Source of the DNA: an uncultured Ignavibacteriales bacterium
Lineage (GTDB): Bacteria > Bacteroidota > Ignavibacteria > Ignavibacteriales > Ignavibacteriaceae
Assembly: GCA_963706055.1 (NCBI GenBank)
Contig: CAVPND010000052.1
Location: 10,712 to 74,711, forward strand
DNA: 64,000 nucleotides
Reading direction: 5' to 3'
A program made the translations under genes and the position numbers. Positions 35,523 through 41,842 of the stretch are shown here, one piece after another. Under the pieces are notes generated by a model. It was not told where the DNA came from. It saw nothing but the letters and a program-made list of their open reading frames with translations, and did no database searches. How positions within the stretch are numbered: the first letter of the stretch is position 1; every line of letters starts with the position of its first letter.

Positions 35523-36503
35523 ATGCACAAAATACTTATACTGTTTCTATCAATTTTAATTATTAGTTGTGAAACAAACCCACCCACAACACCCATAAAT
35601 CCCGTAACTGAATATGGAACAATTAATATAATTACCAATGTTCCAGGTGCTATGATTTATTTTAACGGAACTTCCACGGGAAAAATTACGCCAGATACTT
35701 TAAAGGCAGAAATTGGAAATCATCAATTAAAATTAGTAAAACCTGATTTCGATACTCTAATTGTTAATGTAAGTGTTGAGAAAAATAAAACCACAGAGGT
35801 AAACACATATCTTTTTGCCGCCCAAAAAATAGTTTTGATAGAAGATTTTGCAAATGTTAGCTGTGTTCCGTGTGTAACAAGCAATAAAATTATAGAACAT
35901 CTTGTAAATACAGAATTTGGCACTTCAAAACTTGTTGCAATAAAATATCCCACTAACTTTCCTTCACCAGTAGACCCATTCTATCTTGCAAATGGCCAGG
36001 ATTGTAATGCACGTATGGGATACTATAATATTTTATTTGCGCCAACAACAATCATTGATGGTAATCTGAGACCCACATCTACCGATTCCATCGATGTCAA
36101 AAATAAAATATATTTAGAGTTTACTAAAATTCCTCAATTCAATGTAGATGTAAGCGGAAGTTTAAACGGCAGTAACTATACAATAAATATAGCGATAGAT
36201 GTAAAAGATATCAGCAACATAGATTTTTCTAAACTTGTTCTTCACACTGTAGTTACTGAAACAAATATCGAGTTTGTAAGTCCTCCAGGCTCAAATGGAG
36301 AAACAAAATTTTATGATGTAATGAGAAAAATGCTTCCAACTAACCAGGGTGAATCATTAGCAGCAATAAATCAGGTTGGATCATATAATTTCCAAAGGCA
36401 ATTAACACTTAACTCAAGTTGGATACAAAGCAACATTAACACGGTAGTCTTTATTCAAAACAAAGATACCAAAGAAATTTACCAGGCAGGCTCAACATTT
36501 TAG
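35523..36503 (+). CDS. lipoprotein: PEGA-like domain + Omp28-related thioredoxin-like domain (CVPC)
   Basis: 326 aa. Lipobox LSILIISC. PEGA-like NVPGAMIYFNGTSTGKITPDTLKAEIGNHQLKLVKPDF. IEDFANVSCVPCV. Shares FVSPPGSNGETKFYDVMRKMLP with the next gene. Confidence 0.7.
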   Translation: MHKILILFLSILIISCETNPPTTPINPVTEYGTINIITNVPGAMIYFNGTSTGKITPDTLKAEIGNHQLKLVKPDFDTLIVNVSVEKNKTTEVNTYLFAAQKIVLIEDFANVSCVPCVTSNKIIEHLVNTEFGTSKLVAIKYPTNFPSPVDPFYLANGQDCNARMGYYNILFAPTTIIDGNLRPTSTDSIDVKNKIYLEFTKIPQFNVDVSGSLNGSNYTINIAIDVKDISNIDFSKLVLHTVVTETNIEFVSPPGSNGETKFYDVMRKMLPTNQGESLAAINQVGSYNFQRQLTLNSSWIQSNINTVVFIQNKDTKEIYQAGSTF

Positions 36504-36539
36504 TTTGTAAAATTATTATAATATTATAGGAGATACATT

Positions 36540-40263: not shown

Positions 40264-40300
40264 ATTTGATGCTGTAATTATCTCTAATTAAAAAATAAAA

Positions 40301-41842
40301 ATGAAAACTTCAAAATACCTTACTGCTGCCATTGTCATAGTATTTTACTCAATGGGGTTTAGTCAATCTGATAGCCGCTGGTTTTTGCTCCCTGATGGGA
40401 TAGGAATATCAAACCAACTTGAATACTCATATAACATTGAAAATAAAATTGAAATTTTTGAGAATTGGCTAACGCTTGATTACAATAAAAATATTTTTAG
40501 TGCCGGGTTAAGGTTTGAGGCATTTCAACCAAATGATCCGGACCCATCTGTCAGTCGAGGTAAAGTAAGATATGCGGATATTGCGTATAAATATATAGCG
40601 ATTGATATCGGCGATGTTGAGGAAGGGTTAAATATAACCGCTGGAAATTTTTATAAACTTTTTGGTCGCGGAATGATTTTAAAAAGTTATGAGGATAGAA
40701 ATATTAGGATTGATAATAATTTACTTGGAGTAAAGGTAGAGGCAAACTATAAGGACTTTACACTTACGGCACTTTCTGGTTCGGCAGCCAATGCTGTTGA
40801 TGAGCGAAATGATATTATTCACGCTGCTGATTTACAGTATCGTGGTTTTGAAGTAATTAAACTTGGGTCATCATTCGCATCTAATCAGCCGTCTACAGAT
40901 GGAGCAGCTAGAACAACATTAGCATCATTTAGAGTGCAGCCATCAATTTGGAATTTAGACGGCTATGCTGAATATGGGATTAAAAACAACAAAGACATTC
41001 AGGAAAAAATATTTAAAAACAGCGAATCAAAAATTGGCGAGGCTTTTTACGGCAGTTTAAATTTTTATTATGGAGACTTTTCTATTGTTGGGGAATACAA
41101 GTATTATGATAATTTTGCTTTTACGTCTAATGACGGCACAATTTTTTATAATACCTCACCATCATTAAGAAAAGAATATACATACCAGCTTCTCAATCGT
41201 CATCCATCACCACTGGACCAATCTAACGAGGAAGGATATGCTGTTGAGGTAAATTATAATATCTCTGATGCAACATCGCTGACAGCTAACTATGGTATTA
41301 CAAATACCTTGCCTGCCACATCATACTTTCAGAGGGCAAATATTTTTTCTCTTCCCATTACAACTCAACTAAAGGAAATTTATTTACAGGGCACACACAA
41401 CTGGAATAAATCATTTACCTCTATATTAGCTTTTGGATATAATGAAGAGCTTTCAACAAACACAAAAAACATTACACCGATCCTTGAAAACAAATTTTAC
41501 TTTGATGACATCAATACAATAAAATTAGTATTAGAGCATCAGCAGACAGAAAATTTTTCAACAGATGAAAAATATTTTGATGACGTAATTGCGATTGAAT
41601 ATTTACGCTCACCTAATTTTAGCGTTTCTCTTGTAACTGAAATGCAGACAAAAGAACCAGAAGCCGGTAGAACAATTAGAAAGGTTTGGAGCTTTATTCA
41701 GTTTGGGTACAAGATAGGCGCCCACAGCGATATAAGTCTGCTGTTTGGATCACGGCAAGCCGGTAATATTTGTATTGGTGGAATTTGCAGATATGAGCCA
41801 GCTTTCCAGGGTGCTGAGTTAAAAATTCTTACTAGATTATAA
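40301..41842 (+). CDS. putative outer-membrane beta-barrel protein
   Basis: 513 aa. Signal peptide ..AIVIVFYSMGFSQ. Long run of alternating hydrophobic/polar strands rich in Y/N/G. No catalytic motif. Confidence 0.55.
   Translation: MKTSKYLTAAIVIVFYSMGFSQSDSRWFLLPDGIGISNQLEYSYNIENKIEIFENWLTLDYNKNIFSAGLRFEAFQPNDPDPSVSRGKVRYADIAYKYIAIDIGDVEEGLNITAGNFYKLFGRGMILKSYEDRNIRIDNNLLGVKVEANYKDFTLTALSGSAANAVDERNDIIHAADLQYRGFEVIKLGSSFASNQPSTDGAARTTLASFRVQPSIWNLDGYAEYGIKNNKDIQEKIFKNSESKIGEAFYGSLNFYYGDFSIVGEYKYYDNFAFTSNDGTIFYNTSPSLRKEYTYQLLNRHPSPLDQSNEEGYAVEVNYNISDATSLTANYGITNTLPATSYFQRANIFSLPITTQLKEIYLQGTHNWNKSFTSILAFGYNEELSTNTKNITPILENKFYFDDINTIKLVLEHQQTENFSTDEKYFDDVIAIEYLRSPNFSVSLVTEMQTKEPEAGRTIRKVWSFIQFGYKIGAHSDISLLFGSRQAGNICIGGICRYEPAFQGAELKILTRL

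Follow-up and report, generated by a model that had tools for sequence, protein, structure and literature searches.

A TlpA, DUF6029 and Omp28-like gene module of Bacteroidota as a candidate outer-membrane branch of the DsbD-fed thiol-disulfide pathway

We analysed a gene cluster in a 64,000-nt stretch of DNA (hereafter the window) from an uncultured Ignavibacteriales bacterium (GenBank assembly GCA_963706055.1, contig CAVPND010000052.1, positions 10,712 to 74,711 of the forward strand). Five open reading frames (ORFs) lie on the + strand between window positions 35523 and 41842, with intergenic gaps of 36, 52, 0 and 37 nt in the ORF listing of the window. These coordinates agree with an earlier note on this DNA, which had described five co-directional genes with the same gaps. 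All five products are extracytoplasmic and keep a conserved cysteine pair, with thioredoxin-type active sites in three of them. The cluster represents, in Ignavibacteria, a Bacteroidota-wide gene set, which probably carries thiol chemistry to the cell surface. The features of the cluster are:

35523..36503, + strand: gene 1, 326 aa, lipoprotein composed of PEGA domain, thioredoxin fold of the HBP35/Omp28-like kind (CVPC at 114-117) and beta-sandwich
36540..38978, + strand: gene 2, 812 aa, type IX secretion system (T9SS) cargo with an HBP35/Omp28-like thioredoxin domain (CAPC, residues ~20-250), a middle region with a borderline DUF4159 match, a Cys-pair module (586-715) and a type A sorting domain (729-812)
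39031..39756, + strand: gene 3, 241 aa, small T9SS cargo with a beta-rich Cys-pair module and a type A sorting domain
39757..40263, + strand: gene 4, 168 aa, secreted TlpA/ResA-type thioredoxin, WCKPC
40301..41842, + strand: gene 5, 513 aa, DUF6029 outer-membrane barrel of ~24 strands
41771..41788, + strand: codons of the barrel Cys pair, Cys491-Cys496 (C-I-G-G-I-C), tip of the last hairpin, invariant motif
42058..42084, + strand: terminator-like hairpin 3' of gene 5, from a consensus scan only

Within the cluster itself, the consensus scan detected no such site on the + strand. Judged from the gaps and the terminator-like site, the five genes would form an operon, and the transcription unit probably ends at the hairpin at 42058-42084.

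Gene 1 had been read in the earlier note as a lipoprotein with a PEGA-like domain and a thioredoxin-like part carrying CVPC, and each of these elements was recovered. The lipobox is LIISC, and the protein is without a T9SS sorting domain. Pfam detected PEGA (5.5e-12) and Omp28 (PF11551, 2.6e-12), the latter with 47.4 bits above the gathering threshold of 34.9. Two NCBIfam models, the Omp28 lipoprotein subfamily NF033782 (45.9 bits, cut-off 150) and the 'Omp28-related selenoprotein' NF045500 (42.3 bits, cut-off 200), scored below their cut-offs. When all fetched loci were scanned in six frames for selenocysteine variants (UxxC or CxxU), nothing convincing emerged. In the AlphaFold2 (AF2) model of gene 1 (pLDDT 92) a PEGA sandwich is followed by a thioredoxin fold and a beta-sandwich. 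The thioredoxin fold comprises strand 104-110, the CxxC (114-117) at the N-terminus of helix 115-132, strand 137-143 and Pro174 before beta3 (strand 175-178). The top Foldseek match of this model was HBP35 of Porphyromonas gingivalis (5y1a; E 2.5e-13, TM-score 0.58/0.60, root-mean-square deviation 3.4 Å, 249 columns), and the next ranks were the DUF1223 protein 2axo (E 3.4e-9) and the Omp28 domain 2r2c. As single sequences, genes 1 and 2 gave no direct matches in the PDB. A profile of 30 Omp28-like domains matched an archaeal thioredoxin (3e-6; CxxC and 'VPT' loop in register) as well as 2axo (4.5e-4), Omp28 and HBP35.

The N-terminus of gene 2 matched Omp28 PF11551 at 7e-6 and 26.4 bits, which is below the cut-off. 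Alignment with gene 1 (30% identity over 230 aa, E 6e-23) placed CVPC opposite CAPC and recovered the shared motif SPPG(S/T)NGE..F....RKMLP, both as previously noted. The type A sorting domain of gene 2 (TIGR04183) scored 29.4 bits against a cut-off of 23. The CxxC cysteines, on which the earlier proposal had been built, are conserved throughout: together with the lipid Cys16 the CxxC is invariant in 37 orthologues of gene 1, it is conserved in all paralogues, and it is invariant in 41 of 41 Omp28-like domains from 20 relatives, which include at least three paralogue types (CxPC, WCQYCPG and CPLCP). Also retained in the thioredoxin-like domains are the position of the CxxC at the start of the helix, a conserved proline loop and an invariant upstream Glu, and the Omp28-like beta-sandwich carries the invariant motif NGE...R..LP. 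Close homologues are named 'Omp28-related outer membrane protein' and 'DUF6029 family protein' at NCBI.

The Omp28-related fold had been regarded as being without an assigned function. It holds that the function of the family is not established, but HBP35, the best structural match of gene 1, is a studied member. HBP35 is a T9SS-dependent cell-surface protein with an insulin-reducing activity that depends on C48/C51, and it complements an Escherichia coli dsbA mutant (PMC2907840). It also binds hemin via its C-terminal part (M135-P344), for which the cysteines are dispensable, and it is required for growth at limiting hemin (PMC2907840). HBP35-like surface thioredoxins have also been noted in Muribaculaceae by a 2026 preprint, with speculation about iron handling; the module described here is absent from that account. 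We found no partnership with TlpA or DUF6029 in the HBP35 papers that we read, and our literature search returned no paper linking TlpA, DUF6029 and Omp28/HBP35.

Acidic residues directly follow the lipid Cys in 46 of 51 flavobacterial lipoprotein homologues (e.g. C-SKKED, C-SSDD) and resemble the published Bacteroidota lipoprotein export signal (PMC5080379). In gene 1, residues 16-22 (window 35568-35588) read C-x-T-N-P-P-T and are invariant or nearly so in the 37 orthologues. This stretch does not resemble the acidic export signal and may be a sorting or linker motif specific to the lineage.

Gene 3 is 47% identical (E 6e-67) to the last 227 residues of gene 2 (586-812), in line with its earlier description as a duplicate of the Cys module of gene 2. 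Its sorting domain (TIGR04183) was detected at 1.5e-13 with 50.5 bits against the cut-off of 23. Within the module W69, C74, C78, D84 and S85 are invariant in 35 of 35 aligned sequences, the cysteines forming a CxxxC pair. Sequence and profile searches found no relative of the module in Pfam or the PDB. In its own genome it occurs only in this cluster, and homologues with the Cys pair are present in Flavobacteriales and Bacteroidales loci.

Gene 4 matched Redoxin (PF08534, 5.5e-28) and AhpC-TSA (PF00578, 2.5e-27). The motif WATWCKPC, the TlpA/ResA type and the abutment of its start on the stop of gene 3 are as the earlier note had given them, and an N-terminal signal peptide ends in ...LPLLAQ. 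The closest equivalog model was the ResA-like NF002854 (112.9 bits, cut-off 170); TlpA (54.4 bits, cut-off 230) and DsbE (49.1 bits, cut-off 123) likewise remained below their cut-offs. By sequence, gene 4 is a member of the broad TlpA/ResA/CcmG family that belongs to no named orthologue group (ResA, TlpA, DsbE, StoA). It scored 196 bits against a profile of barrel-linked TlpAs, compared to 101 bits for the next paralogue in its own genome, and the barrel-linked TlpAs clustered in a phylogenetic tree (0 of 500 label shuffles as low). The earlier note had proposed a search for ccdA/dsbD elsewhere in the genome, and we found a full-length DsbD, composed of the domains DsbD_N, DsbD_TM and thioredoxin, as well as a CcdA-like protein that has thioredoxins as neighbours. 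The genome further encodes T9SS machinery (SprA_N 161 bits, PorU 955 bits), one DUF6029 gene and four Omp28-like genes. Outside the window, a TlpA-like paralogue (C45:95536-95985) lies upstream of porU, the gene of the T9SS sortase (C45:96785-100078), at a distance of ~800 nt. One TlpA-family gene was induced 2.1-fold in an iron-stimulon study, unconnected to the module (PMC10434189).

Gene 5, previously suspected to encode an outer-membrane barrel, belongs to DUF6029 (PF19494; 1.4e-62, 212.5 bits, cut-off 27). It is a divergent member, as core members score 550-716 bits. The AF2 model (pLDDT 83, pTM 0.76) is a barrel of ~24 strands. The putative periplasmic turns are all 2-5 residues long, and the long loops (75-91, 118-140, 231-245, 271-308 and 336-354) are on the opposite side, which is the usual outer-membrane pattern. 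Alignment and model together place the conserved residues mainly in two of these extracellular loops (118-140 and 271-308). Cys491 and Cys496 lie on either side of the GG that forms the tip of the last hairpin, which connects strands 23 and 24. The pair is predicted to be extracellular since the side with the short turns was taken as periplasmic in the strand order. The surrounding motif, G-x-x-C-[VI]-[GN]-G-[VI]-C-R, is kept without exception in 36 of 36 DUF6029 proteins whose overall identity is only ~22%, and its cysteines are the only ones universally conserved among them. Foldseek returned generic large barrels only, namely the 24-strand ushers FimD/PapC (TM-score ~0.52), TonB receptors, AlgE and MtrB. 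No sequence homologue of the barrel was found in the PDB, where matches to RecA were spurious and due to glycine-rich sequence.

To assess how widely the cluster is kept, gene neighbourhoods were compared across the class and the phylum. DUF6029 was present in 30 of 61 close relatives. TlpA is encoded directly upstream of DUF6029 in all 20 of the relatives' loci that were fetched with flanks, and most of these clusters contain Omp28-like genes. Over 80 Ignavibacteria loci, the direct TlpA-DUF6029 arrangement was found in 77. Presence counts were based on the 61 of these loci with at least 6 kb of upstream sequence: TlpA occurs in 61, an Omp28-like gene in 55, a gene 3-like gene in 53 and all three in 49. 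In 38 of 62 Ignavibacteria loci, the stop codon of the gene 3-like gene directly adjoins the start of TlpA or overlaps with it.

For the phylum we used an even sample of 401 Bacteroidota genomes, in which DUF6029 was detected in 104 and Omp28 in 78; 69 contained both, 35 DUF6029 only, 9 Omp28 only and 288 neither. As the sampled genomes are related, this co-occurrence is to be read as a pattern and not as a statistical test. Thirty-one of the 35 DUF6029-only genomes come from one family with divergent barrels. The one locus of that family inspected (L186 of genome G222, positions 5866-9207) encodes a divergent barrel of ~505 aa with TlpA upstream; in place of Omp28-like proteins, the barrel is followed by a lipoprotein of the Redoxin type and by a T9SS protein, each of which contains CPHC. 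In the best 30 loci of the phylum sample, TlpA was directly upstream of the barrel in 24. A set of 80 mostly Flavobacteriales loci contained TlpA and an Omp28-like CxxC gene within 4 kb in 65 cases, usually with the lipoprotein gene divergent from tlpA-DUF6029. Among 55 long Bacteroidales-type loci, 49 encode tlpA, the barrel and a ~280-aa CxNC lipoprotein in this order, and 28 of these 49 also have the small Cys-pair T9SS protein. A genome scan seeded with Bacteroidales barrels returned no Porphyromonas among the best 80 loci. One Bacteroidales-type locus (L267) shows the exact order of the window with an extra lipoprotein 3' of the barrel. In some lineages a TlpA-like or Redoxin domain is itself T9SS-exported.

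The arrangement recurs in hundreds of genomes and is therefore far beyond chance. The linkage, whose conservation the earlier note had proposed to check, is conserved in close relatives (20/20) as well as across the phylum (24/30), and the five genes do represent a real conserved module. Its core, however, is not the five-gene order but a set of three components found phylum-wide, namely TlpA, DUF6029 and a CxxC protein of the Omp28-like kind, to which the small Cys-pair T9SS protein is often added.

Some loci depart from or extend this scheme. In one locus (L168:4457-8690, genome G317, matching a contig of Chryseobacterium cupriresistens), tlpA, DUF6029 and a full-length dsbD are arranged in tandem on the same strand and separated by 2 and 29 nt; this DsbD combines DsbD_N with a transmembrane and a thioredoxin domain. 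Proteins of ~687-690 aa are also encoded 3' of the barrel in further Chryseobacterium-group loci. One family within the class of the window genome encodes a 209-aa tetratricopeptide repeat (TPR) protein just upstream of the barrel with a 4-nt overlap (L179:8145-8774, L180:5839-6468), and an Omp28 lipoprotein (CVYC) 3' of the barrel. This TPR protein matches, faintly and below threshold, the TPR of Slam, a modifier of surface-lipoprotein assembly.

Two larger genes follow the cluster in many Ignavibacteria. A TonB-dependent receptor is located 3' of the cluster in 40 of 58 Ignavibacteria loci, 39 of which also contain a gene for a 1265-aa T9SS protein (window 42177-49033 for both). Neither belongs to the phylum-wide core. 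In the window the receptor begins 334 nt after gene 5 and is split into overlapping ORFs in different frames (42177-44120 and 44062-45201), whereas in relatives a single uninterrupted ORF of ~950-1020 aa shows 85-91% identity to both halves. As the receptor ORF of the relatives is intact, a frameshift or an assembly error near 44062-44120 is indicated. Upstream of the cluster lie genes for a secreted H-type lectin domain protein (window 35019-35378; PF09458, 2.9e-21) and a 117-aa protein (window 34590-34943). Their position is kept in most close relatives inspected (the same genus and a few of the same family), and neither was seen in the wider phylum loci.

We favour the reading that the cluster is a dedicated extracytoplasmic thiol-disulfide system, in which DsbD feeds TlpA, TlpA serves thioredoxin-like proteins of the outer membrane or surface, and the barrel is their membrane partner. 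We assign this reading a probability of about 0.5. Reducing power would enter the periplasm via DsbD and be taken up by the TlpA-type thioredoxin of gene 4, which would then serve the HBP35/Omp28-like proteins at the outer membrane or surface, with gene 1 positioned by its lipid anchor and gene 2 by type IX secretion. The barrel of gene 5 would act as the obligatory outer-membrane partner, be it scaffold, plug-holder or conduit, and gene 3 would be a further client or partner. Direct support comes from the folds, the conserved Cys pairs, the linkage, the co-occurrence and the presence of DsbD and T9SS, whereas the reducing direction, the surface exposure of gene 1, the contact between the parts and the substrate are inferred. 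The main argument for an involvement of the barrel is genetic, because it is the only membrane-spanning part and the one most tightly tied to TlpA. By analogy with LptDE or MtrAB, a plug-less barrel of ~24 strands would also have room for a protein in its interior. Candidate substrates may be extracellular disulfides, oxidised surface proteins or, as for HBP35, a heme or metal ligand.

Several observations weigh against this interpretation. In the family represented by L179 and L180 the TPR protein takes the place of TlpA, and the tree does not resolve a single origin of the barrel-linked TlpAs, as its deep nodes are weak. Gene 1 has one acidic residue only after the lipid Cys (C-E-T-N-P-P), which makes its surface exposure uncertain. 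Going by the model of gene 5, the C-x4-C in the last extracellular loop could be a purely structural disulfide, and because it is predicted to be extracellular, it would be beyond the reach of a periplasmic TlpA unless contact is made via the lumen. Finally, since HBP35 binds hemin independently of its cysteines, the HBP35/Omp28-like family may be chiefly ligand-binding.

A first alternative is nutrient capture and import, which we consider possible but clearly less probable than the favoured reading. Here, the surface HBP35/Omp28-like proteins would bind heme, a metal or a thiol-reactive nutrient, the barrel would be the entry channel, and TlpA would reduce the ligand or the ligand-binding cysteines. 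A role of this kind has a parallel in rhizobial TlpA, which keeps the copper sites of ScoI and CoxB reduced. The cysteine-independent hemin-binding region of HBP35, needed for growth at limiting hemin (PMC2907840), corresponds to the Omp28-like beta-sandwich with NGE...R..LP. The conservation of loops 118-140 and 271-308 on the outside of the barrel and the TonB-dependent receptor 3' of the cluster in Ignavibacteria (40/58) would also fit an import function. However, the receptor lies outside the phylum-wide core, and a plug-less barrel of 24 strands is unusually large for a small-molecule channel. Moreover, no conserved His or Met ligands were found in the barrel alignment of the 36 DUF6029 proteins, and a redox-type Cys pair is kept in every part.

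It may be speculated that the thiol-disulfide system extends to an electron relay across the outer membrane, although this more specific scheme is doubtful. TlpA reduced by DsbD would dock in the DUF6029 barrel from the periplasm and reduce the lipoprotein in or on the barrel, either directly or via the barrel Cys pair, and the lipoprotein would in turn reduce T9SS-anchored thioredoxin-like proteins and external substrates. If true, such a relay would do at the outer membrane what DsbD does further in, or would parallel MtrCAB with cysteines as carriers, and it would account for the recycling of surface thioredoxins such as HBP35.

A role in biogenesis only appears unlikely. According to this explanation, TlpA would be a dedicated maturation factor for the barrel, the lipoprotein and the T9SS cargos, keeping their cysteines reduced or shuffling them during periplasmic transit, and there would be no redox cycle at the surface afterwards. 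The barrel Cys pair, being predicted as extracellular, could then be a structural staple, and the abutment of the gene 3 stop on the TlpA start (38/62) would suit a chaperone-client pair. The disulfide oxidoreductase CHU_1165 of Cytophaga has been reported to affect outer-membrane proteins. On the other hand, the thioredoxin-like domains keep their full active-site architecture, which a mere client would not need. Furthermore, HBP35 is catalytically active in vitro (PMC2907840), and the T9SS export of a TlpA-like or Redoxin domain itself in some lineages also speaks against this explanation.

That DUF6029 is a polysaccharide-export porin with the redox genes as mere neighbours, as might be suggested by the link that Saidi et al. 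2022 draw between DUF6029 and some Wzi-barrel-like porins near outer-membrane polysaccharide export (OPX) genes, by HHpred similarity to plug-less Wzi-like barrels (PMC9603273) and by AlgE among the fold matches of gene 5, is highly improbable and was rejected in this context, because no OPX/Wza-type gene was seen in the window cluster or the loci inspected and the constant neighbours are TlpA and CxxC proteins; the fold matches are moreover generic for large barrels. In the literature searched, this is the one work that mentions DUF6029, and it does so in another context.

DsbD-fed thiol-disulfide pathways are taken to terminate in the periplasm. In hundreds of Bacteroidota genomes, the module links the gene of a TlpA-type reductase with those of an outer-membrane barrel and of thioredoxin-fold proteins that are lipid-anchored or secreted to the surface. 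We know of no route by which reductases outside the periplasm, at the cell surface, are re-reduced, and the module is a concrete and testable candidate for re-reducing surface proteins such as HBP35. It would also provide a first functional context for DUF6029 and the Omp28 family. As carriers include cultured strains of Flavobacterium, Chryseobacterium and Hymenobacter, genetic experiments are feasible.

Compared to known systems, the closest parallels for the surface components are HBP35, Omp28 and DUF1223. Like HBP35, gene 1 has an N-terminal thioredoxin fold with a CxxC followed by an immunoglobulin-like beta-sandwich, and gene 2 is T9SS-exported; a weak profile match to HBP35 covers the motif VVLEVFTAEWCGYCPG. 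Unlike HBP35, to which identity is ~18%, gene 1 is lipid-anchored, has an additional PEGA domain and lacks a sorting domain, and gene 2 is ~480 residues longer. With the Omp28 family (PF11551; P. gingivalis Omp28, 2r2c), gene 1 shares the lipoprotein nature, a score above the Pfam cut-off and the C-terminal beta-sandwich, which matches 2r2c, whereas it is far below the cut-off of the NCBIfam subfamily and gene 2 is below that of Pfam. The DUF1223 protein Atu2684 (2axo), a secreted protein with a CxxC thioredoxin fold and a beta domain, resembles gene 1 in fold but is proteobacterial. To our knowledge, no lipid anchor, T9SS domain or barrel partner is known for Atu2684. P. gingivalis PorA (PGN_0123) is a small protein with a T9SS sorting domain and signals to PorXY. 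It is comparable to gene 3 in its size, in the N-terminal beta-sandwich or beta-rich module followed by a type A sorting domain, and in having a CxxxC pair, Cys92-x3-Cys96 (PMC12152298). A PDB search with the gene 3 profile, however, did not recover PorA even at an E-value limit of 10.

For the barrel, the comparison is by analogy only. MtrCAB combines a barrel of 24-26 strands with a co-encoded periplasmic redox protein and a surface lipoprotein, and its MtrB is among the fold matches of gene 5; LptDE pairs a large barrel (24-26 strands) with a lipoprotein plug and rearranged disulfides. The module has no sequence relationship to either of them and no hemes. Gene 4 resembles the TlpA/ResA/CcmG reductases fed by DsbD or CcdA in its fold, signal peptide and WCxPC motif, and a DsbD is present in the genome. 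The known clients of these reductases, apocytochrome c, ScoI and CoxB, are periplasmic. The neighbours of gene 4, unlike those in the known systems, are an outer-membrane barrel and surface-directed proteins, without adjacent ccm or cox genes. The parts of the module thus come from known families, and what would be new is an outer-membrane and surface branch of the DsbD/TlpA reductive pathway.

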